Origin: Roseburia sp.
GTDB lineage: Bacteria > Bacillota > Clostridia > Christensenellales > Pumilibacteraceae
Direction of reading: 5' to 3'
Length of the DNA: 64,000 nucleotides
NCBI GenBank assembly: GCA_023665905.1
Contig: JAMPDA010000002.1
Location: forward strand, 27,832-91,831
The position numbers and the translations under genes are program-made. Under the pieces are notes generated by a model. The model had not been told where the DNA came from, searched no databases, and was given only the letters and a program-made list of their open reading frames with translations. Below are positions 36,999 to 49,131 of this stretch, one piece after another; the stretch's first letter is position 1; each line of letters begins with the position of its first letter.

Positions 36999-37074
36999 CG
37001 AGGTGTAGCGCAGTTGGTAGCGCGCATGGTTCGGGACCATGAGGCCGCGAGTTCGAGTCTCGCCACTTCGACCA
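36999..37074 (+). tRNA. tRNA-Pro(CGG), integration target
   Basis: Acceptor CGAGGTG/CACTTCG, CATGG-TTCGGGA-CCATG anticodon arm, ACCA end. Confidence 0.97.
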
Positions 37075-37076
37075 CA
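37030..37076 (+). repeat. att core, left copy (3' part of tRNA-Pro from the anticodon loop)
   Basis: TTCGGGACCATGAGGCCGCGAGTTCGAGTCTCGCCACTTCGACCACA identical to 48010-48056. Confidence 0.95.
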
Positions 37077-37123
37077 TAGGGCGCTTGCCCGACCTAAGGA
37101 CCGTTCGACCGCGAACGGTCTTT

Positions 37124-38029
37124 TTAATTGCGCGGCTCGAGAACAGCATTGAGCTTTGCCGCTTCGCGCAGACTGTAGTCGATACTTACATCGCTGTATA
37201 TGTCCGCAGTGGTGGCGATCTCCGAATGTCCGAGCCAGGTCTGCACGACTTTCATCGGGATATCCGCCTCCAGGGCACGTGTCGCGAACGTATGTCGCAG
37301 GTCGTGCAGTGTATGGTTGGCGCAGTATTTTTTAAAGTTCTTTGATACGTAATCCGGTTGAAAGGGGAACAGCGCGCCGGTGTTCGGAAGCTCCGGCAAA
37401 AGCCGTTGTATGCCGTCGAATATCGGGATATACCGGTCGGATAGAACCGTCTTAGTGCCGCGAATGTGAATGACGTGCTTTTGCTCGTCGATGTCCTCGC
37501 GGTGAACGGCGAGCGCTTCGTTGCGGCGACATCCGGAATACAGGCAGAACAGATAATAATGCTCGAGCTTAGCTCCGTGTATCGCACGCATGAATTCGGA
37601 TTGTTCCTCGAGCGTCAGCGCTGTTCCTTTGTGTCGCTTCGCCTTGCAGCTCTTGATCTTCGACATCGGGTTATACTCGATCAACTGCTCTGCGACCGCT
37701 TGCCGGAACGCGCCGGAAAGCAAATTGTGCACACTTTCGCGCGTGCGCGGAGCCGGAATAGCGTTCAACACTTTCTGAATATCCATAGGTCGAACGTCCT
37801 TAAGCGGCAGGTCGTCGGGCAGGTTTGGAGCAATGTGCAGACGAATATTTCGCCTCATTTGCTTGAACGTTTCCGGCGCGACAGTGTTACTCTTGTAGAC
37901 GTCTATAAACGCACACAACCAGGCAAGCAGCGTCATTCCTTGCGTCGCCGGCTGTATGTCGGTGAGCCTGCCGAGCGCGCGTAGCGCTTCATCGAGCATA
38001 TGAAAAATGTCGGATAGTTCGTCGTTCAT
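37124..38029 (-). CDS. tyrosine recombinase (integrase)
   Basis: SGCRRNE (R), GTKT (K), HDLRH (HxxR), LGH and ADIY (Y) catalytic residues; adjacent to att. Confidence 0.96.
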   Translation of the reverse strand: MNDELSDIFHMLDEALRALGRLTDIQPATQGMTLLAWLCAFIDVYKSNTVAPETFKQMRRNIRLHIAPNLPDDLPLKDVRPMDIQKVLNAIPAPRTRESVHNLLSGAFRQAVAEQLIEYNPMSKIKSCKAKRHKGTALTLEEQSEFMRAIHGAKLEHYYLFCLYSGCRRNEALAVHREDIDEQKHVIHIRGTKTVLSDRYIPIFDGIQRLLPELPNTGALFPFQPDYVSKNFKKYCANHTLHDLRHTFATRALEADIPMKVVQTWLGHSEIATTADIYSDVSIDYSLREAAKLNAVLEPRN

Positions 38030-38037
38030 TACACACC

Positions 38038-38070
38038 ATTATATATAAGAATACTTATTTTGTCAATAAG
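38038..38070 (-). promoter_or_regulatory. consensus promoter of the integrase with overlapping palindromic operator
   Basis: Minus strand TTGACA(38066-38061)-17 bp-TATAAT(38043-38038), 8 nt before ATG; CTTATT-N5-AATAAG palindrome at 38054-38070. Confidence 0.75.
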
Positions 38071-38098
38071 TTTTCTTATAATTTGCTATAATTATATT

Positions 38099-38350
38099 AT
38101 GAATTTTGCTTGCAAAATAAAAGAGTTGCGGTTAGAGGCGCATATAACTCAAAAAGAACTTGCAAAACAACTCGGTTGTACTCAACCTATGATTACACTA
38201 TGGGAAAAAGGGGAATGTGAACCGACGGAAAGCGTAATACGAAAAACGGCTTTATTTTTCAACGTTTCCGCCGATTACTTACTCGGCCTTGAAGATGAAA
38301 ATGGTGTAAAGACCTATTGCAACATATACAACAATTACGGCACCCATTAG
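38099..38350 (+). CDS. XRE/Cro-C1-type HTH repressor
   Basis: IKELR...TQKELAKQLGCTQ..I..WEKG..EP...FNVSADYLLG; divergent from integrase; start re-called at MNFACK. Confidence 0.93.
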   Translation: MNFACKIKELRLEAHITQKELAKQLGCTQPMITLWEKGECEPTESVIRKTALFFNVSADYLLGLEDENGVKTYCNIYNNYGTH

Positions 38351-38383
38351 GGCGACGTAAAATTCTAACATCGGGAGAAGACT

Positions 38384-39496
38384 ATGGCATCCAAAACTTG
38401 TGCTATATGCGGAAAACCAAGCGGAATGTACCCATTGTGCAATAATTGTTTTAAACTTCGGGATGAAGGAAAAATAAAAAAATGTCCGAAATGTGGAACA
38501 TGGCATTTATCAGAAAATGAATGTACATGTGGATATAAAATATATCATACTGAATTTCCTAAACAAGGTTTTGATAACTGTGTAATATGTGGAAATAAAT
38601 CGAATGGATATGCATTCTGCAAAGATTGTTGGAACAAATTTTCTTTTGATGAGGATGGTTTATTAGATACTCTGAATAATTATGAAAACGAGAAGAACAC
38701 CGGCAATACTTCTAAAGAAAGTATTAGTCTGTCGCAAACTAAAGTAATGGAAAAATTTACTAATTGTATAGTCTGTAATGAAAACTCCAATGGATATTCG
38801 CAATGTAGAAATTGCTATAATGAAACATTAAATTTTAAAGATTCATTTGATAAAAACACTCGAGCTTTTGAATTTAGAGACTATTATTTCAATCTTAAAA
38901 GCAACATAATGAGAATACGGGAATTTATAAAAGTACAAGAAAACTGCAACAAACTGATGGCAATAGCTCTAATAAATGCAGAACAAAATAACGATAACAC
39001 ACTAAAAGATAGAGTAATTGAAGATATTCAAGATATAATAAAAAAAAGAAAACCCTTAACGACAGATAAAGTTTCAGAATACACACAAAAACAAGATTCA
39101 CAAAAAGAATATATTAAAAGGACTTTAGATGGTCATATTGTAAAAAGCGATGCCGAAGTAATCATTGACGATATTCTCTATAATTTAAGAATACCCCACT
39201 GTTATGAAAAAAGAGTAAGTGAAATAAATGATGAGGAACGAACCATAATGTGTGATTGGTTTATTCCCATTGAAAGTAATAGTAAAGGGATTTATATCGA
39301 GTATTGGGGAATGGACACAGACAAATATATTCAAAACAAAAAAGAAAAGAAAAATCTTTATAAAGTCAACGATATCCCGCTTTTAGAAATTGAAAAGGAT
39401 GAAATAAAATCCGATTCACAAGGATTGCAAGATAGAATACGAATCGAATTAAATAAAATCGCAAGAAAATATTACCGAATTAAAAATAAATTTTAA
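38384..39496 (+). CDS. AT-rich cargo protein: repeated Zn-finger modules plus putative PD-(D/E)XK/DUF559-like nuclease domain
   Basis: Three CxxC-x7-8-CxxC modules plus CPKC...CTC; C-terminal VKSDAE..IDDIL...YEK...CDW...IYIEYWG pattern. Confidence 0.7.
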   Translation: MASKTCAICGKPSGMYPLCNNCFKLRDEGKIKKCPKCGTWHLSENECTCGYKIYHTEFPKQGFDNCVICGNKSNGYAFCKDCWNKFSFDEDGLLDTLNNYENEKNTGNTSKESISLSQTKVMEKFTNCIVCNENSNGYSQCRNCYNETLNFKDSFDKNTRAFEFRDYYFNLKSNIMRIREFIKVQENCNKLMAIALINAEQNNDNTLKDRVIEDIQDIIKKRKPLTTDKVSEYTQKQDSQKEYIKRTLDGHIVKSDAEVIIDDILYNLRIPHCYEKRVSEINDEERTIMCDWFIPIESNSKGIYIEYWGMDTDKYIQNKKEKKNLYKVNDIPLLEIEKDEIKSDSQGLQDRIRIELNKIARKYYRIKNKF

Positions 39497-39570
39497 GCGA
39501 CGACTTATTCACTCCGGTAAATGACACCGTTTGATGTTGCGCATACTCGCCAACTATAACATAATCGCAC

Positions 39571-39599
39571 TTGACAGCCCGCAAATCCTATGCTATACT
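39571..39599 (+). promoter_or_regulatory. promoter of the Phd-YoeB operon
   Basis: TTGACA-17 bp-TATACT with extended TG; near-identical copy at 48263-48291. Confidence 0.85.
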
Positions 39600-39627
39600 T
39601 GCATATACTGTAAAGGAGATGAAAACC

Positions 39628-39885
39628 ATGCCTGTTGCAAGTAAAAAAGATTTTTCCAACAATCTGTCCGATTATCTTAGTGCAGTAATTTCGCGTGGCG
39701 AAAAAATCCAAGTAACGACCGATGAAGGCGGCGCGATCGTTATGTCGGCAGACGAATATAACAATTTAATGGAAACGCTATATCTATACAGTATCCCCGG
39801 CATGAAAGAAAAAATCGAGAACGGTATCAATACAGACTTATCCGACTGCGTTGACTTCGATTGGCGTAAGGAACTCAAAGACTGA
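39628..39885 (+). CDS. Phd/YefM-family antitoxin
   Basis: F..NLSDYL..V...E...VT...G.AIVMSADEYNNLMETLYL pattern; AAGGAG RBS; overlaps the toxin start. Confidence 0.9.
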   Translation: MPVASKKDFSNNLSDYLSAVISRGEKIQVTTDEGGAIVMSADEYNNLMETLYLYSIPGMKEKIENGINTDLSDCVDFDWRKELKD

Positions 39886-40142
39886 TGTATCGGATAGTAA
39901 GAACGCGCAAAGCGGAAAAGGATATCGAACTTCTGAAAAGTTCGCATTTGAACAATAAAGCTATGGCGTTATTGGAAATCATCGAGAGAAATCCGTACGA
40001 ACGTCCTGTAGAAAAGCTAATAAATTTAAACAACACATATTCAAAAAGGATCAACGGAAAACACCGGCTTGTATATGAAGTATTCGAAGATATAAAAACA
40101 ATTAAAGTAATAAGTTTATGGGGACACTACGACGATAATTAA
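39885..40142 (+). CDS. Txe/YoeB-family toxin
   Basis: YSKRINGKHRLVYEV...IKVISLWGHY. Confidence 0.93.
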   Translation: MYRIVRTRKAEKDIELLKSSHLNNKAMALLEIIERNPYERPVEKLINLNNTYSKRINGKHRLVYEVFEDIKTIKVISLWGHYDDN

Positions 40143-40147
40143 TAAAC

Positions 40148-40179
40148 AAAAAATCGCTCGAAATATCGGGCGATTTTTT
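40148..40179. terminator. bidirectional terminator between YoeB and Rep
   Basis: AAAAAATCGCTCG-aaatat-CGGGCGATTTTTT. Confidence 0.85.
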
Positions 40180-40241
40180 ATGTGTACTATGAGATAATAT
40201 TATTTTTTAATTTTGATCCCCGCACAGCTTATTAACCGGGA

Positions 40242-41585
40242 TCAGAAGGGAAGATCGTCATCATCATCGGATTGCAAACTCAAATCTAAGCGTAATTGTA
40301 TGAATTTCTTAACCGGACCGGGCTCTTTTGCGTCATCGGAAGATATCGGAGTGTCTTCATCGGGAACGCGTGCAGCCAAGTATTCTTGTACATACTTGTA
40401 TGCCTTTTTTCGAGATATGCATTTAAGCGATTTATTATGTAATCGTTCTTTCAGCTCGAGAAGCTTGAACGTAAACCCGACAGGATCTTCCACTTCTTTC
40501 AATCGACGTATAACATACTCATAAGCGGCGAGAATGTCCGAATCGATTTCCCATTCGTCTTTCGGCAGTTTGTACCAGGCGCCGTAGCCTTGCCCGAAGT
40601 GCATGTTTTTGATTAACGGCACAAGCACTTTAAACTGATAATACATCATCGGCGAGCCGTTTTTTGTGAGTTTCGTGACATACTTAAAAGCTTCGTGCCA
40701 AGACTGTCCCTCGATTTTGTCTATAACACAGCTATAACCTTGACGTCGAAATGAATTTAACATATGCATACTCACATTGTATTTACCGCACCACTTTTCG
40801 AGCTTGTTTTGATTAACGGCTATGCCGTTAAGAACATAATCGACGATTATTTTGTCGAGCCGTATGCGATTATACTTCAACGCGAGTATTTTCTGTATGA
40901 GTATCTCAAGATCGGAAAACTTGCGCGTAAATATTCCGCGACTGAAACTGTAATCGTTAGTAAATAACTTGTCTTCGGCGAGATCTTTCTTGAGCGCGAG
41001 TATGCAATGATAATGCGGGTGAAAACTATCCGGGTTTAAAACGATCTCTATGTTCCTATAACAGGCATAGAATCCGTAAGATGCAAAATCTATACCCGCG
41101 ACTTTAGAATTGCCGGTAAAATAGCGTATAACACTCTGAAATGCGCTCGACAAGCGATCGAGCGAATCTCGCAGACTGTCGATAGGACAGTTTGGAACGG
41201 TAAGCGTCATCATATAGAGGTCATGGTCTTTCACGACATCTTCGAATATTTTAGTAAAACGCTGTAATTGCGCTGCTTGTCGAAGATGTTGACAGTTGAC
41301 GCATAATCTGTCGTGGCATAGGAATATTTGCTGTACGTCAAAAACTTCCTGCATGTCATAATATTCACCACACCAGCGTTTATGGCAATTAAGCATGCGC
41401 TCCGCGTTCTTTTTGTACTGCTCGTCGTCGAGCTCGTCGGCGAGTTGACTGTAATATTCGGCATACACGTCGTTAAATGTAGTATTGTGATCGAGCTTGT
41501 CCACTTCGTCCGATGTTATTTCTATCGACGGCGGCGCTTCGAATACCGGGACAAGCTCCGGTTGTTTTTTCATCTTGTTACCCAT
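40242..41585 (-). CDS. HUH-superfamily rolling-circle replication initiator (Rep_1, pC194/pUB110-like)
   Basis: CHDRLCVNC, motif I MTLTVPN, motif II HPHYHCI, motif III EAFKYVTK, GYG near the end. Confidence 0.92.
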   Translation of the reverse strand: MGNKMKKQPELVPVFEAPPSIEITSDEVDKLDHNTTFNDVYAEYYSQLADELDDEQYKKNAERMLNCHKRWCGEYYDMQEVFDVQQIFLCHDRLCVNCQHLRQAAQLQRFTKIFEDVVKDHDLYMMTLTVPNCPIDSLRDSLDRLSSAFQSVIRYFTGNSKVAGIDFASYGFYACYRNIEIVLNPDSFHPHYHCILALKKDLAEDKLFTNDYSFSRGIFTRKFSDLEILIQKILALKYNRIRLDKIIVDYVLNGIAVNQNKLEKWCGKYNVSMHMLNSFRRQGYSCVIDKIEGQSWHEAFKYVTKLTKNGSPMMYYQFKVLVPLIKNMHFGQGYGAWYKLPKDEWEIDSDILAAYEYVIRRLKEVEDPVGFTFKLLELKERLHNKSLKCISRKKAYKYVQEYLAARVPDEDTPISSDDAKEPGPVKKFIQLRLDLSLQSDDDDDLPF

Positions 41586-41919
41586 ACGCTCCTCCCTTAA
41601 CGCGTAAGCTTATTTCTATATGTCAAGTGGTTGCCCTCGCGCCGCTGCGCGGCGCTCGTCAACCATCACCCGGGCACGGGCGCGGCGGCAAGCCACTCGC
41701 GCCCGTGCCCGGGGTTTTGTTTTTGCCGCTTCGCGGCAGGCGGGGAGTGGATAAGAGCGGGCCGTGCGGTGGCCCGGCTCGAGGGAGCGGCGGTCGTTGG
41801 GATTGCTCCTCGTCGCCGGCTTCCGTCGCGGCGCACGTCATAGCTCGCTTCGCTCGGACGTGCGGCTCTGCTTCTCGTTCCGTGTCCGCTCCGTCTGTTC
41901 GACTTTGCGGCTGTTCGGG
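41586..41919. other. putative replication origin region (dso/sso-like)
   Basis: Non-coding, GC-rich, upstream of rep; perfect 16-bp inverted repeat 41669-41684/41698-41713; minus-strand CTTGACATATAGAAATAA at ~41610-41627 resembles the pC194-family nick region. Confidence 0.6.
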
Positions 41920-42012
41920 CTAAAGTCCAAAACGGTGTATGAGATACACCGTAAGCAGCGACACGCCGATGTCGGCGGTCAAGCGAATGACCCATTTGAG
42001 AAATTCTCGCAT
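41920..42012 (-). CDS. 30-aa hydrophobic peptide (Fst/Ldr-like type I toxin or minor virion protein)
   Basis: Manual translation MREFLKWVIRLTADIGVSLLTVYLIHRFGL; AAAGGAG RBS 8 nt upstream. Confidence 0.7.
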   Translation of the reverse strand: MREFLKWVIRLTADIGVSLLTVYLIHRFGL

Positions 42013-42105
42013 GTTCTTTGCTCCTTTATTGTTGTTTTTCGCTCCGATCGTTGACCACGTTTGTCAACGCCGGAAAGATCTTTCGGGGAATTTATTGTAA
42101 AAGCC

Positions 42106-42239
42106 TTGACTTTCGTCTGTAGACGGAATATACTTGTAGACAAGGTAGCGAACTCAACCGGTCACGGTTGTTTATGTCGGAGTTCTGAAGAACGCCCGAC
42201 CCGCAGGCAAGAAGTGATAATATGTCACTTCTTTTTTTT
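42106..42239 (+). ncRNA. putative sRNA cassette (promoter 42106-42134, RNA ~42141-42239)
   Basis: TTGACT-17-TATACT; hairpins CAACCG/CGGTTG and GTCGG/CCGAC; terminator AAGAAGTGA/TCACTTCTT plus T-run; no ORF beyond MSEF. Confidence 0.6.
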
Positions 42240-42695
42240 GGGCTTTTTTAGCACCATCCCCGTATGAACGAGCGCATTATGTGTATCATTACTGCCTAAA
42301 GTAAACTGCTCTTTTCCCTCGGGAAACACGGTTTTGTCCTCTATATCCAGCGGCTTGCCGGATATGCGGTTTCTATCGAAACGCTGAAAGTCTACGCCCG
42401 TTCGGTTCGGAAGCCCGTATCGTTCGTGGTTGATCTCCACAAGCGCCGGATCGGCGTTCTTCCCGTTTGCGTCGAACTTCTTGACGGTCTTTAGCTTGGC
42501 GACGGTGACGTTTTTGCCTTTTTCTCGGACTACGACGTAATCGCGTTGCTTCTTGGGCTCGACGTCTATGTACTTTGTTTCACCGCGGTAAACCTTGCCG
42601 ACTTTGTTCTCTTTATCGGCGCGCTCCGCATAACTTCGGCGTATGGCGCGTTTCTGCGCTTCCGATTTGCAGTGGAATTTAGACTTCTTCGCCAT
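42225..42695 (-). CDS. basic hypothetical protein, possible PemK/MazF-like fold
   Basis: GGAGGA RBS; GKVY...KQRDYVVV...VTVAKL pattern loosely like PemK G.IY...RP.VVV...V.V. Confidence 0.7.
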   Translation of the reverse strand: MAKKSKFHCKSEAQKRAIRRSYAERADKENKVGKVYRGETKYIDVEPKKQRDYVVVREKGKNVTVAKLKTVKKFDANGKNADPALVEINHERYGLPNRTGVDFQRFDRNRISGKPLDIEDKTVFPEGKEQFTLGSNDTHNALVHTGMVLKKPKKKK

Positions 42696-42960
42696 GAGGA
42701 TCCTCCGAACAGGGCATTGTAGCTCCGGTCGTTGACACAGCTTGTCCGCACCGTAACCGTTTGCGCTGAAGTCGTCGATGTCGTTTATACCATTTATCGA
42801 TCAGTTTAAATGTCCTGCACATATTGCGTCGGACATACGATAAAAAGATATCCACGTCGGCTTCTGGCATGTAGTCTACGGTATCGTACACACAGCGATA
42901 CGTCTGTTTGTAGCGTTCGAATACCTCGTCAATAATGTCGTTCTTAGAGAGATCTATCAT
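42679..42960 (-). CDS. 93-aa hypothetical protein coupled to the ATPase gene
   Basis: Start MIDLSKND overlaps the ATPase stop; operon packing. Confidence 0.65.
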   Translation of the reverse strand: MIDLSKNDIIDEVFERYKQTYRCVYDTVDYMPEADVDIFLSYVRRNMCRTFKLIDKWYKRHRRLQRKRLRCGQAVSTTGATMPCSEDPHGEEV

Positions 42961-43778
42961 CGTTTTTGCTCCTTTTTGTAGAAACCGTCCGGAAGCTCGT
43001 CGTCGAAATCCGACAGCCATTTAATGTAGCCGTCAAAATTATCTTCGGTGAGCTCCGCAGCGGAGTAGTCTATATCGCTGTCCAAATGCCCTTTGTAAAA
43101 CTTCGGTTTACAGCTGTAACTGTCGTAAAAATCGAATATGGGCGCGTCGACCACAAACTCGCTCTCGGTGTAGCAGCTCGTGTCGCGCTTCCCGCTCGAG
43201 CAATACGCTTCGTATTGCTGTAAATTGTCCATATGCCGGAGCGTCCAGACGAACCGGCACGGACGGTTCCACCTGTCGTAACCGGCTATAACCAGCTTGA
43301 CAACCTCGATGAACTGCGCCAGCTCGCGGACATTAAGGTCGATCAACCCGACACGTTGTGTATCCAGGTATATATCTAACCAGTTATGTCCGTGCTGCTC
43401 ATACCAGCGACTTTGCCAATCGGGGTAATTAGCATTTCTGCGGCTGTTGAGATACTTCTGCGCTTCGGTTATGCAGATACACTCGTACGGCAGATTGAAA
43501 TGTGTATCAACATAAGCGTTGGCAAAGCCCAATCGGTACGGGTTTATCCGGCGTGTATAACGCGGGTAATATCCGAACCGGCGAAAAACCATGTCGTAAT
43601 TAGCGGACACGCAATGCTCGGGGATCGTCGTTATATTGGCAAACCCCGACGCCTGCTTCTGTAACAGCTCACGACGCATTGCGCGATTGCGGTCTTTATC
43701 GTACGCGGTCTTATACGCAATAGCGGTCAATAACGCTGTTTTTCCGGTTCGCGGCGGCGCAAAAATTATGGTTATCAT
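42957..43778 (-). CDS. Zot/pI-like (inovirus morphogenesis-type) P-loop ATPase
   Basis: Start MITIIF (ATGA overlap); Walker A APPRTGKT, Walker B-like CICITEAQKYLNSR, HGHNWLDIYLDTQRVGLIDLNVREL matching the Zot HxHxxxD...TQ....ID..xR motif. Confidence 0.85.
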   Translation of the reverse strand: MITIIFAPPRTGKTALLTAIAYKTAYDKDRNRAMRRELLQKQASGFANITTIPEHCVSANYDMVFRRFGYYPRYTRRINPYRLGFANAYVDTHFNLPYECICITEAQKYLNSRRNANYPDWQSRWYEQHGHNWLDIYLDTQRVGLIDLNVRELAQFIEVVKLVIAGYDRWNRPCRFVWTLRHMDNLQQYEAYCSSGKRDTSCYTESEFVVDAPIFDFYDSYSCKPKFYKGHLDSDIDYSAAELTEDNFDGYIKWLSDFDDELPDGFYKKEQKR

Positions 43779-45175
43779 GAATCTTTCCCTCGCCGGATAA
43801 TCGCCCGCACAAGCCGCACAGGAGCCATGATGAGCCATAGCAGACCTTTGCCGATCCACACCAGGCACTGTAGTAGCAATGGTCCGATAACCGGCAAAAA
43901 CAATAAAATTACAAATATAACGAAAATGACAACAACCCAGGACACCCAGCTGTATGAAGAACCGCCAAAAACTTTGTTAAAGAAACTTCCGATAACCCCC
44001 AAAACATCAGTAAAACCGTCCCAAAACTTTTGCCAGGCTGAACGAGAATCTGTGTCGTAAATTCGATCGTTTTGATTTGTATTATCGGGGATAAAACTTC
44101 CAAGATATGTATCGTTGACAACACCCAGCTCATATACCATTTCCTCGCTTACAAATTTAAGAGATACCATTGTAACGGCGGTGACAATAGTATGCCGTAA
44201 AGTTCCCACCGGATAATTTAATGCTACATAAGGTTCCGTTAAATATCTCAAAACCCACTGTTTATCAATTATTTTAGCTTTGGCGCTGTCCTCCAATTGC
44301 TCCGTATCGAGAAAATCGGCAACGGATTGTATGCAATTCCACGTGTATTTCACCGCATGCGTTCCGCCGGAAGTATTGGTGTCCACGTCTGTATAAGATA
44401 AATGCACAGTCTTAGATGCCGTATTTAATACCTTATCGACTACATAAGGATACGTAGCTGATGAAATCAAATGAGTTTCCGACTCATAATACACGTCCGC
44501 TTCAATGAGATTATCTATTTTATAGTAGGTGGAAAAAGCAACGAAATTATTATCTACAGAAGTTAAAAGACCGGACGCATAACGGACAAGCCCGATATAC
44601 TCGTCCGTTATAGTTATGACTTCTACATCATGCCTGTTATAGCTGGTGTTATCGATTACCCACTCCGCACCGACAGGGTAAGCTATTTCGGTTATGGGAG
44701 TTGAGCCGTTCTGAGCACCGTCGATATCCGGCTCCCATGCTCGATAAATAGACGTAATATCATAACGCCGCACAGAATTATAGGATACAGCGACGCCTTG
44801 AACCTTATACTTGAACAACGTGTTATAATTTCCCAAATATGTCAAATCATAACGCTGTCGTTTGACATTATCTGTTGCAAGATTAATGCCGGTTGCTCGC
44901 ACATCATTTTTCCCGGACGGTTGATATACGTATACAACAATGCCTTGCGTATCTGTTTCCGCGATCTGTATTATTTGTAAAGAATAATCGCCGGACTTTA
45001 CGGGATAATCGGCTATATTTAAACCTGTATTGGAAAAATCGTCAAGGACAGTGACGATATCTTCTTCCGCATGCGCGCTCGGTAGAACCGGCACGGCGAG
45101 CAAGAACATCATAAGCAGTACTGCGCACAATATTGCGGTCAGGATCTTACGTAAGTTTGTCTTTATTGAGATCAT
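43775..45175 (-). CDS. 466-aa membrane-anchored protein (signal peptide, ectodomain, C-terminal TMs and basic tail)
   Basis: Signal ...LLAVPVLPSAHA; C-terminal WVVVIFVIFVILLFLPVIGPLLL..., RLVRAIIRRGK; GAGGTG RBS. Confidence 0.85.
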   Translation of the reverse strand: MISIKTNLRKILTAILCAVLLMMFLLAVPVLPSAHAEEDIVTVLDDFSNTGLNIADYPVKSGDYSLQIIQIAETDTQGIVVYVYQPSGKNDVRATGINLATDNVKRQRYDLTYLGNYNTLFKYKVQGVAVSYNSVRRYDITSIYRAWEPDIDGAQNGSTPITEIAYPVGAEWVIDNTSYNRHDVEVITITDEYIGLVRYASGLLTSVDNNFVAFSTYYKIDNLIEADVYYESETHLISSATYPYVVDKVLNTASKTVHLSYTDVDTNTSGGTHAVKYTWNCIQSVADFLDTEQLEDSAKAKIIDKQWVLRYLTEPYVALNYPVGTLRHTIVTAVTMVSLKFVSEEMVYELGVVNDTYLGSFIPDNTNQNDRIYDTDSRSAWQKFWDGFTDVLGVIGSFFNKVFGGSSYSWVSWVVVIFVIFVILLFLPVIGPLLLQCLVWIGKGLLWLIMAPVRLVRAIIRRGKDS

Positions 45176-45240
45176 AGTATCACCTCGAGAGAAACGGCAA
45201 AGGTCGAGAGCTTAAAACTCTCGACCACACCGGTTGTTGA

Positions 45241-46875
45241 CTATCTGTTTTTGCGTTTCCGGACAACGGCGGCTACAATCGCTATTACGACTAAGCCGGC
45301 GACGGCAAAGCACGGGATCAACACGTACTACTTATAATGATCCCACCAGGTTACACGACGTTCCGTCACCTCGAGATCGGACAACCGCGCGTATAGCGTC
45401 ACGTCGCCGGTAAGCTCGTCGGATCTAACAGCTTCTCTGCTGAAGCCGGTATCGTAATACCAGCCGCCGAAAGCCTTACCCTCTACGTCCACGTCGTACA
45501 GGTACGAGGACAGGGTACTGCCGTACGGCACGAGCTTGGACACGACGTCGCCGTCAACGTTAAAATTGACGAGCACCATGCGCGTTATTGTCGTGCCGGC
45601 ATTGAACGCGGACACGTCTATGGACATCTCGTGCGTTGCGAGAGCTTGTCCGACATTGCCCAGGGCGCGAACGCGCACCGTGTATTCGCCGGTAACGTGT
45701 ATGTACGCCGAGGCGTCGAACGTCGGCTCGTCTACGACAAAGTCGCTCGTGTGTCCGCGATCGTCTATAGACACAAAATATCCGCATGCGCCGTCCACTT
45801 CCGCCCAGCTCAACACTCCGGACGAGAACGTTATATCTGTTGGAGCCGCAAGACGAGATATGGAGAAGTAGACAGGCGGAACGGACAGAGCGACGGCGTA
45901 AGTAATGCCGGCTTGGTTTTGCATTGTGCCAAAGGAATACGGTTCAAAAGTAATCGTATAATCGCCCAGAACGTCAACGAAAGTCAGCTGTGTCAGATCG
46001 ATAAAGAGATATTCGCCGTCAATAGTGCCGAGCGAATCATTGTGGGTATTGTAGCAATTATGCCCCGCGCCGGTAGTGTAGCAGTCGGTATATCCGTTTC
46101 CGGACACTTCGACATAATAGCCGATATGCCCACCGTATGGATATGACTCGTTCAAGAACGGATTAGAAAAATACGGCTCGCCGTAAAAACTGTTAATGCG
46201 CAGAGTAGTGTCTGTAAACTCGACTTCGACGTCTGTAGTCGGGAAGTAGATCGGGTTAGAATAAGCCGTATCGCTGTTGACGTATTGATTGGAACCGGAG
46301 CCGCCGGACATAAAGTTGTACACCGAAAGAACCGGGCACAAGCCTGTATGGAACGAACCGTACGTATCGTTTGCGGCGAGATAATCGGCGTAAGGCTTTA
46401 AAGCGCTGTACGATACAAAAATACGCCATGTGGAGAGACCGCCTTGTGTTTGAATCGTCGACGTAAATAAAGACAAAGGACGGGTAATTTTGTCATCGAT
46501 ATTGTTCCGCCACCCGTCCAGAATAGTCAGCTGACACACGGTGCCGATTGGCGGATAACCGGTTGTGACGATATACACGCCGGTGTCGGTATACTCGAAT
46601 GTCGGGGTCGGGAGCTTTGTCACGGCGAAAACGGCAGAGCTGTCCTCGCTGTCGTACAAAAGTCCGGCGTTTGCAGCAGATCTGTTCATGCCGGTTTCGG
46701 ACGGCTCGGCTTCCGTGTCGGTCGGAACGGCGACGGCTGATCCTTTACCCCAACAGTTGAACCAGGCAGAAGGATCCCACGTTCGGAAGCCGGACGTCGC
46801 CCAGGCGAGAATGCCGAACAGCGCCGCCACGAATACGATCATGATGATCCAATTATTCCTCGATTGTCTTGTCAT
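45241..46875 (-). pseudogene. surface/attachment-like protein interrupted by an in-frame TAG just before its C-terminal TM anchor
   Basis: 515 aa from MTRQSR (N-terminal TM, FN3-like LAAPT..LSW..V.GA.GY, Flg_new-like FGGWYYD...TLYA), TAG at 45328-45330, then in-frame YVLIPCFAVAGLVVIAIVAAVVRKRKNR to 45241. Confidence 0.75.
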
Positions 46876-46972
46876 AAAAAATCCCCACCGCTTCATGGCA
46901 TACGGCACGCCATTATAATTAGATGGGGTCTTACTTATATACCGCCGATACCCCGTCACTGCGGTCAAGAAA

Positions 46973-47443
46973 TTACAAGCCGATATCGTCTTCATCCGAC
47001 GCGATAGGAACGTCATCATCGACTATACTGGTTATGCCGAGCAGCGGATTAGCAAGATCGCGAAATACCGAAGAAAACCGTTCTTTAACAGCAAATTCTA
47101 TTTCGTAATCAGGCGCAAACGGAGATTTCGCAAACACGCCGGCATAAGTAACATCGCGCTTCTTTTTCTTCGAATAATACGTTACGGCACGGATTTCGAC
47201 ATTAAATTCGACCTCAGGCACAGTTCGTAACGCCTTTTTACCATAATAGTCGATGTGTCCCTTAACGCTGTCCCAACGCGGCGAAATGCCGACGTTAATG
47301 AAATCGGGGTCGCCGAACGGGTCGAGAATGACGGTTGATATTGCACTCCGCTTTTGCCCGTCGTCGGCTTTAAATTCGAACAGCCTCATTACAGCCGTAG
47401 CGGTAAGGACTTCCGCCGGTTCTTGCACTTGTTTCTTTTCCAT
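46973..47443 (-). CDS. putative ssDNA-binding protein
   Basis: Start MEKKQV after AAAGGAG; beta-strand/aromatic pattern, acidic tail DDDVPIASDEDDIGL; located in an RCR element. Confidence 0.55.
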   Translation of the reverse strand: MEKKQVQEPAEVLTATAVMRLFEFKADDGQKRSAISTVILDPFGDPDFINVGISPRWDSVKGHIDYYGKKALRTVPEVEFNVEIRAVTYYSKKKKRDVTYAGVFAKSPFAPDYEIEFAVKERFSSVFRDLANPLLGITSIVDDDVPIASDEDDIGL

Positions 47444-47505
47444 AATTACTCCTTTGCCGATACATACCCTCGGTCGCGGGTTTATGTATTTTTTGCCTTT
47501 ACGGC

Positions 47506-47550
47506 TGGAGGCGCGGGCGGGAGTTGAACCCGCCATGTCCCGGTCGCGCC
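47506..47550 (-). ncRNA. 45-nt tRNA-like minihelix (acceptor plus T arm, tRNA-Cys-like end)
   Basis: GGCGCG-ACCGGGACAT-GGCGGG-TTCAACT-CCCGCC-CGCGCC-TCCA: 6+6 bp stems, consensus T-loop, U discriminator, CCA. Confidence 0.6.
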
Positions 47551-47634
47551 ATGACCATGCCCGCAAGGAGGAGCAGGCACGGTACAGAGGGAAGATGAGA
47601 GCCCGTCATGCCGATAGCCCAGCAAGAAAAACTA

Positions 47635-47940
47635 TTAAAGACGTTGAGCACGTTCAACGCCGGCACGGAACGATCTTTTATTCTCGTCGCGCACGGGAAC
47701 GCGCTTGCCGGACTTTGCCGCGCCATACCCGACACCGGCATGAAACGCCGCTTTTTGACTGTCGGTGTGTTGCGACACACTGCGCGCCGGGGAACGTTTA
47801 CCGCCGGCACATAACGAATTTAACCGTTCCTGCGCGTACCGACGTTGTCCGTCCGTCAACTTCGGATCGTTCACGCGTCGCTCGTAATACGCGCATTTCT
47901 GTTGAACGGAGTATGTCTTATCCGCTTTTTTATTTGCCAT
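47635..47940 (-). CDS. 101-aa basic hypothetical protein, first gene of the minus-strand operon
   Basis: AAAGGA RBS; Arg/Lys-rich; fills the space next to the right att. Confidence 0.7.
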   Translation of the reverse strand: MANKKADKTYSVQQKCAYYERRVNDPKLTDGQRRYAQERLNSLCAGGKRSPARSVSQHTDSQKAAFHAGVGYGAAKSGKRVPVRDENKRSFRAGVERAQRL

Positions 47941-48009
47941 AATTAGTCCTTTGCCCTTAACCCCATTGGGCGCGAGGTGATTATCATTAACAGCTTAAGC
48001 CGGTTATTT

Positions 48010-48056
48010 TTCGGGACCATGAGGCCGCGAGTTCGAGTCTCGCCACTTCGACCACA
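48010..48056 (+). repeat. att core, right copy
   Basis: Identical to 37030-37076. Confidence 0.95.
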
Positions 48057-48103
48057 CAGGGCCGTTAGCCCGACCTAAGACCGTTCGACCGCGAACGGTC
48101 TTT

Positions 48104-48235
48104 TTAATTGTGCGGCTCGAGAACAGCATTGAGCTTTGCCGCTTCGCGCAGACTGTAGTCGATACTTACATCGCTGTATATGTCCGCAGTGGTGGCAATC
48201 TCCGAATGCCCGAGCCAGGTCTGCACGACCTTCAT
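48104..48235 (-). pseudogene. integrase C-terminal fragment (43 aa)
   Basis: MKVVQTWLGHSEIATTADIY...LEPHN versus ...LEPRN in the intact copy; three differences are synonymous. Confidence 0.9.
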
Positions 48236-48319
48236 TGCTCGCCAATTATAACATAATCGCACTTGACAGCCCGCAAATCTTATGCTATACTTGCATATAC
48301 TGTAAAGGAGATGAAAACC

Positions 48320-48565
48320 ATGTGCGTTACGACCGCCAACAAATTTATAAAAAACGCCGGCGCGTACTTGAACGACGTACTTTCGGGCGAACAAAATGTT
48401 ACCGTTGCAACCGAAAACGGCAACGCTGTTCTTTTATCCGAAGAGGAGTACAACAGCTTAAAAGAAACGTTGTATCTTTTAAGTGTTCCCGGAATGCGTG
48501 AAAAACTGCTTGAAGCACAAGCCCAATCCCCCGAAACGTGCAGGGTGTGGAATGGCGAACTTTAA
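48320..48565 (+). CDS. second Phd/YefM-family antitoxin
   Basis: NAVLLSEEEYNSLKETLYLLSVPGMREKL; same promoter and RBS as the first copy. Confidence 0.9.
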   Translation: MCVTTANKFIKNAGAYLNDVLSGEQNVTVATENGNAVLLSEEEYNSLKETLYLLSVPGMREKLLEAQAQSPETCRVWNGEL

Positions 48566-48821
48566 GATAATTATCACGGCGCAAGCTGATAAGGACTTAA
48601 TAAAGCTCAGACAATATCCGGCGCTTGTAAAAAAAGCCAATACGATTCTTACCGAGTTATCCGAAAATCCGTTTGTTCCGCCGCTCGAGAAGCTTTGCGG
48701 GGAATTATGTAACATGTATTCCAAAAGATTAAATAAACAGCATAGACTTGTCTATTCGGTAGACAAAGAAAATAAAACAATTAAAATATTGTCTTTATGG
48801 ACACATTACGAAAATATATAA
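48552..48821 (+). CDS. second Txe/YoeB-family toxin
   Basis: Start re-called at MANFKI; YSKRLNKQHRLVY..., IKILSLWTHYE; terminator AAGGACTG/CAGTCCTT follows. Confidence 0.92.
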   Translation: MANFKIIITAQADKDLIKLRQYPALVKKANTILTELSENPFVPPLEKLCGELCNMYSKRLNKQHRLVYSVDKENKTIKILSLWTHYENI

Positions 48822-48858
48822 AGGACTGCCGAAACAGTCCTTTTTTTATGAAATAGTA

Positions 48859-48971
48859 TTTATTCGAGGAGCAAATTTGCCCGTTAGCGCAATCACAGAT
48901 TGAGTTGTTTTTATTACGTATTATTGCAAAGCGAGAACGCAAGCAATGTTTCGTGTAACATTCGGCTGCCG
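48859..48971 (+). repeat. ~113-bp dispersed intergenic repeat, copy 1
   Basis: TTTATTCGAGGAGCA...GCGCAATCACAGATTGA...AAGCAAT...GGCTGCCG aligns by eye with the reverse complement of 59786-59899. Confidence 0.8.
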
Positions 48972-49028
48972 TGCGGGTTCTGGATTTGCCCGGGGGGGGG
49001 GTATAATACCTAATTTATTGTAAATGCC

Positions 49029-49131
49029 TTGACTTTCGTCTGTGGACGGAATATACTGTAAGCAAGTAACGACAGTTCCGCAGGGACGGTGCTAATGCTC
49101 ATGGAGTGTTTGGCGGTTCGTTACTTTTTTT
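49029..49131 (+). ncRNA. second putative sRNA cassette (promoter 49029-49057)
   Basis: Same TTGACT-17-TATACT promoter as 42106; the transcript is closed by an AAGTAACGA/TCGTTACTT stem plus T-run. Confidence 0.5.

Follow-up and report, generated by a model that had tools for sequence, protein, structure and literature searches.

When an in-frame amber codon separates a secreted protein from a membrane anchor encoded directly downstream of it, is the gene simply broken, or are a secreted and an anchored form both made from it? This question is raised by a minus-strand gene in a 64,000-nt stretch of DNA, hereafter the window, which covers positions 27,832-91,831 of the forward strand of contig JAMPDA010000002.1 in the Roseburia sp. 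assembly GCA_023665905.1. The host genome is a Christensenellales MAG of 49 contigs and 1.82 Mb that is 97.6% complete.

An amber codon separates the gene from its membrane anchor

The open reading frame runs on the minus strand from 47019 to 45328 and ends in RRVTWWDHYK-TAG. Its probable true start is the ATG at 46875 (MTRQSRNN...), which is a start common to all homologs and has GGTGGGGA just before it; counting from this codon gives a truncated product of 515 aa, the same length as in the database's own gene call, compared to 544 aa if the stop is read through. We confirmed that the arrangement on the minus strand is exactly as originally noted, RRVTWWDHYK-TAG-YVLIPCFAVAGLVVIAIVAAVVRKRKNR-TAG, and the features around it are as follows:

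45328..46875, minus strand: mutated gene in its current form, 515 codons plus the premature TAG
45328..45330, minus strand: premature amber codon TAG, which is TGG (Trp) in homologs; the altered base is 45329, T on the plus strand and A on the coding strand
45244..45327, minus strand: orphaned 28 codons, YVLIPCFAVAGLVVIAIVAAVVRKRKNR, the family's C-terminal transmembrane (TM) anchor and basic cytoplasmic tail, intact
45241..45243, minus strand: original (ancestral) stop TAG, where homologs end
45202..45226, minus strand: GC-rich hairpin with a 9-bp stem, GGTCGAGAG-loop-CTCTCGACC, between the ancestral stop and the RBS and ATG (45175) of the next gene

Since the second TAG is followed directly by the hairpin and then by the RBS and ATG of the next gene, the second stop represents the ancestral gene end. 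The hairpin may serve as a terminator, an attenuator or an RNA stabiliser; it was not called by an intrinsic-terminator scan, as it has no clean T-run.

The claim that the codons after the first stop encode a TM helix with a positively charged tail is borne out by the sequence, in which 22 hydrophobic residues are followed by RKRKNR, and by a predicted helix at residues 526-549. An open extension of 28 codons is by itself not unusual; at least 28 open codons follow the stop in ~45% of long ORFs of the host genome (53% G+C), whichever stop is used. What sets the tail beyond chance is homology and not the length of the open frame, because it aligns column for column with the anchors of all 22 homologs that were recovered in a search of 5.8 billion proteins (29-45% identity). 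The 28 residues have a mean identity of 41% to these anchors, and identity to the homologs is about 48-55% in C-terminal residues 401-550 and 11-18% in N-terminal residues 101-300. By this comparison, the tail is about as conserved as the adjoining domain and shows no decay. Since the tail is undecayed, either the mutation would be recent or the tail would still be under some selection.

The encoded protein starts with a signal or TM segment and includes a variable ectodomain, an Fn3-like domain and, near the C-terminus, a Listeria-Bacteroides (InlB B; Flg_new) repeat. This repeat was the sole Pfam match, and PHROGs gave no match for the protein. A layout of N-terminal signal, extracellular domains, one C-terminal TM helix and a short basic tail is found in 22/22 homologs, and in the window gene if it is read through; cleavage of the signal sequence is predicted at AWA/TSG. 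An AlphaFold2 model (23-sequence alignment, mean pLDDT 68) consists of an N-terminal helix, a disordered linker, a beta-sandwich chain and the C-terminal helix. Foldseek matched this model to generic Fn3 tandems only in the PDB; its matches in BFVD were tailed-phage proteins with Fn3 domains, of the tail or host-specificity type. Since Pfam, PHROGs and Foldseek against PDB and BFVD revealed neither sequence nor fold similarity to inovirus g3p, we rejected membership of the g3p family.

On the other hand, the combination of a variable ectodomain, a conserved C-terminal part and a place upstream of a Zot gene forms a pIII-like pattern. Since N-terminal variability, type-I topology and gene position are all pIII-like, an adsorption or minor coat protein is a reasonable analogy, and on this analogy we find such a role somewhat likely. 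The earlier label of an attachment protein is therefore plausible and unproven: the position and architecture of the gene fit it, but a g3p match in sequence or fold was not found. Directly after the N-terminal hydrophobic segment is a strongly conserved aromatic motif, AWATSGFxNWNAxxWFxYWGKG (window 46740-46875, minus strand), which may represent a shared membrane-proximal assembly element.

The interrupted gene belongs to an integrated inovirus-like element

The gene lies within an element with the following features:

37030..48054, no strand assigned: integrated element of ~11 kb, bounded by the 3' part of a tRNA-Pro and its duplicate
37124-38029, minus strand: tyrosine integrase
40242..41585, minus strand: Rep_1 rolling-circle replication initiator (E 6.6e-17)
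42957..43778, minus strand: Zot/pI-like P-loop ATPase (phrog_197, E 4.8e-11; Pfam Zot 17.8 bits, under the 20.3 cut-off)
43775..45175, minus strand: secreted protein of 466 aa whose C-terminal part is multi-TM; bajarodino virus 12 has a full-length homolog, encoded upstream of its Zot gene

The boundaries are marked by a direct repeat (37030-37255 and 48010-48235, copies 10,980 bp apart) that contains the 3' part of the tRNA-Pro, and the element stands out as a block of lower G+C in the window. A candidate tmRNA at 47973-48054 (plus strand; 18.6 bits, below gathering) was rejected, as it is the duplicated 3' fragment of tRNA-Pro at the right attachment site. An inovirus-like identity is supported by the Zot-type ATPase, Rep_1, the integrase, the small size and the att repeats.

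The gene order o101 - o197 - mutated gene - p466 - Zot-like - o113 - o156 - Rep, with the integrase nearby, recurs in Christensenella/Clostridia MAGs (L004-L007), and the order o197 - mutated gene - p466 - Zot is kept in L004-L006. Alignments with these counterparts cover almost the whole of each remaining gene, and by this comparison the element looks otherwise intact. Two large secreted membrane proteins are encoded, the mutated gene being the first of them; no similarity was found between it and its 466-aa neighbour, and we rejected the two as paralogs on this basis. Among the ORFs inspected (41550-43050 and 47000-48000), we found no convincing candidate for a major coat gene, and the sole hydrophobic small-ORF candidate encodes 30 aa (41920-42012, minus strand). 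The ORF of the Zot-like ATPase has no TM segment.

Beyond the right att copy, positions 48010-49060 hold the remnant of a sibling element. It comprises the 3' end of an integrase that is 93% identical to 37030-37255, an 85-bp promoter/start block that is 98% identical to 39546-39630 and precedes a Phd/YefM-YoeB-like pair, and a 46-bp block that is 96% identical to 42089-42134.

Homologs carry a sense codon at the position of the stop

All 22 homologs run uninterrupted through a TM helix and a basic tail, to which the orphaned 28 residues align. The residue in the TAG column is Trp in 20 of them, and the two nearest homologs have Lys (P0003) and Ser (P0004). At the DNA level, the codon is TGG in each of six distinct homologous loci (L004/L024, L005/L021, L006/L023, L007, L020 and L022), so that L007 reads ...AAG TGG TAC GTG... 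where the window reads ...AAG TAG TAC GTG.... A stop codon at this position was found in 0/22 homologous proteins and 0/6 distinct DNA loci. We also searched 117 genomes of the same family and found the gene in six, this one included; the gene has no internal stop in the five other species of the genus, and only this genome has "1 TAG".

Since the homologs have TGG, the TAG is best read as a lineage-specific G-to-A nonsense mutation (C-to-T at position 45329 of the plus strand), one of the possibilities originally proposed and the one that the Trp column, the six loci and the five uninterrupted species support. Altogether, it is likely that a plain nonsense mutation (G to A), recent and confined to this lineage, turned a conserved juxtamembrane Trp codon into the in-frame TAG.

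Within the nearest clade, the TAG column has three states, Lys (P0003), Ser (P0004) and stop (window), where P0003 and P0004 were compared as proteins; a single base separates TAG from each of the codons AAG, TCG and TGG. Since the two nearest homologs have Lys or Ser, Trp does not appear to be strictly required, and any inserted residue might work.

Exact-pattern scans that allowed either TAG or TGG returned no near-identical copy from metagenome contigs or viral contigs, and hence no sibling of the same element with the ancestral allele. The family alignment found no relative among the viral contigs, nor did tblastn with the protein find a match among 50,697 phage records. This genome holds no second copy of the gene that could complement the first.

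The host reads TAG as a normal stop

TAG terminates 202 of 1031 long ORFs in the host genome (~20%), and the open extensions that follow TAG do not exceed in length those that follow TAA. RF1 is intact, with a score of 498 bits against a cut-off of 423. A CUA anticodon was present in 0 of 43 tRNA genes and PylS gave nothing above the cut-off, both in a genome that is 97.6% complete, so that absence is not absolute; pyrrolysine decoding was rejected on these two grounds. As far as this evidence goes, the host uses the standard code and decodes TAG as a normal stop.

Programmed read-through had been the other main proposal for this locus. It finds no support here, since the homologs have TGG, RF1 is present in the host, TAG is used there as an ordinary stop, and neither PylS nor a suppressor or Pyl tRNA turned up. 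As a conserved trait of the family, programmed read-through is refuted by the sequence comparison, on the criterion originally set, TGG in the homologs.

The same data bear on a leaky or newly evolved form of read-through, in which the product would be mostly a secreted ectodomain, a near-cognate tRNA (Gln, Tyr, Lys or Trp) would yield a few anchored copies, and the element would remain viable with two forms of the protein. The fully intact and conserved tail is what would be expected if it were still translated at some level; a recent mutation explains it equally well. The Lys and Ser of the two nearest homologs suggest a site that accepts other residues, and the element is intact in its remaining genes. 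A filamentous phage particle requires no more than about five copies of its tip protein, so that a low level of read-through could suffice.

A 7-bp inverted repeat, GGGATCA ... TGATCCC (45312-45344, minus strand), brackets the stop and puts the amber codon in a hairpin loop, and the RNA around it folds better than shuffled sequence (z = -4.0). However, this repeat is absent from the homolog sequences inspected, the stop is found in none of the 22 proteins and six loci, RF1 is present with no suppressor tRNA, and TAG is a normal stop genome-wide. We consider leaky read-through improbable. Similarly improbable is a newly arisen two-form arrangement, in which near-cognate read-through would supply a few anchored tip copies while the bulk of soluble, Fn3-rich ectodomain would occupy the receptor.

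The amber allele is the consensus in two samples

Independently assembled Logan contigs from two public runs are identical to the window over 44800-46200, with a word depth of 37-39 and no alternative letters. The two runs are two samples of one 2017 study, one of which may be the MAG's own source. What we inspected were assembled contigs, which hide minority variants, so that a minority TGG allele may also be present.

That TAG is the consensus in both samples and that the other genes of the element are all kept would fit an allele selected in the lysogen, either because it disarms particle production or because it frees an ectodomain that blocks the receptor against superinfection. On the other hand, this is one allele in one genome, and none of the 22 homologs is truncated, so there is no convergence within the family. 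A Trp codon also lies a single base from each of two stop codons, and juxtamembrane stretches are rich in Trp, so that chance alone would be expected to produce such mutations repeatedly. We regard adaptive truncation as quite improbable.

A sequencing error had also been allowed for originally, and the TAG could likewise be a consensus of mixed strains in which a functional TGG allele is also present, since the genome is a 49-contig MAG and contigs drop rare variants. Since the contigs of two runs are identical at ~38x, a one-off assembly or consensus error is unlikely, and a consensus substitution error in particular is very unlikely; taken as a whole, we give an artefact very little weight.

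Re-initiation at the GTG or TTG codons 4-9 nt past the TAG, which would split the gene functionally and yield a membrane peptide of 26-27 aa of the small hydrophobic kind that inoviruses typically have, is barely conceivable, as the GTG predates the stop (stop-free homologs read TAC GTG, Tyr-Val), no Shine-Dalgarno sequence lies at a proper distance and no homolog is split. Across these alternatives, the positive evidence consists of the tail, which is intact, and the 7-bp inverted repeat that brackets the stop and is not conserved.

Comparison with known systems

Under the preferred reading, a nonsense mutation, a G-to-A change would have converted the conserved juxtamembrane TGG to TAG in an inovirus-like integrated element, within its gene for a type-I membrane protein. 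The stop would be decoded normally and give a 515-aa product with neither the C-terminal TM helix nor the basic tail. By analogy with the filamentous phages of the Ff group, the truncated protein would be freed from the cell or kept by its N-terminal segment alone, and proper assembly would be lost. Whether it is shed or tethered depends on cleavage of the conserved N-terminal hydrophobic segment (AWA/TSG). On the same analogy, in which the protein has a role in the virion or in adsorption, this copy of the element probably has defective or strongly attenuated particle production or infectivity.

The closest parallel is with gene III ambers and pIII M-domain truncations of Ff (f1/fd/M13), where, as here, a secreted protein is encoded upstream of a pI/Zot-type ATPase gene and the stop removes a single C-terminal TM segment and basic tail. 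Before they are assembled, the capsid proteins of Ff are all located in the membrane, and pIII needs residues in its TM helix and the adjoining linker for incorporation into the virion (PMC10175506). Unlike Ff g3p, to which it has no detectable relationship, the window protein consists of Fn3/Ig-like beta-sandwiches in series together with an InlB B-repeat. The window gene also differs from the Ff mutants in that its host is a Christensenellales MAG (Clostridia), the mutation is natural and not from the laboratory, and the presence of its product in a virion is putative.

A second comparison is with bajarodino virus 12 (PQ006185.1), a distantly related Inoviridae genome (circular, 9.8 kb) from rodent faeces that has the same gene-slot layout as the element, together with an integrase. 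Its Zot-annotated ATPase is homologous to that of the window (28% identity, E 9e-19), and its 541-aa protein (L029 8035-9660), encoded at the same position, is a full-length homolog of the 466-aa neighbour (27% identity, E 4e-35). Homologs of both proteins in this virus support the inovirus-like reading of the element. The 466-aa protein is more widely conserved than the mutated gene, and it may be the real tip (pIII/pVI-like) protein of the group.

The 345-aa protein in the slot of the mutated gene, on the other hand, is not detectably homologous to the mutated protein; it has an N-terminal TM segment only and no C-terminal anchor. When we aligned the family with it by hhalign, the probability was 0.2, and only a 10-residue W-N/D-P-x-x-W motif after the N-terminal TM segment aligned. 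A G-C-W-N-P-x-x-W sequence after the N-terminal TM segment of this protein (L029 6991-8025) resembles the aromatic motif of the family. Anchoring by the C-terminus is thus not a general feature of the wider group, judging from these sequences, though it is found in 22/22 members of the mutated gene's family. Since the slot protein of bajarodino virus 12 has no C-terminal TM segment, the anchor may matter less here than in Ff.

The A1 protein of phage Qbeta is the product of UGA read-through. Programmed read-through of this type resembles the window gene in that a functional C-terminal extension lies in frame beyond a stop codon. However, in programmed read-through the stop is kept among relatives, whereas here every relative has a sense codon, and no decoding device was found.

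Implications for filamentous phages of gut Clostridia

The TAG looks like ordinary recent gene damage and not like a regulated read-through device, and the stop-then-anchor arrangement, read as a single-base nonsense mutation and not as recoding, gives a clean negative. Since the mutation is a nonsense mutation, annotation should mark the gene as disrupted and this prophage copy as probably defective. The analysis also outlines, in Christensenellales, a conserved family of inovirus-like elements of ~11 kb; the gene occurs in 6/117 genomes of the host's family, counting this one. The Fn3-rich type-I membrane protein of this family always has a C-terminal anchor in the homologs found, which is useful for characterising the filamentous phages of gut Clostridia. 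By analogy, the event would represent a natural counterpart of the classical gene III amber and C-terminal truncation mutants, in an uncharacterised inovirus-like family of gut Christensenellales.
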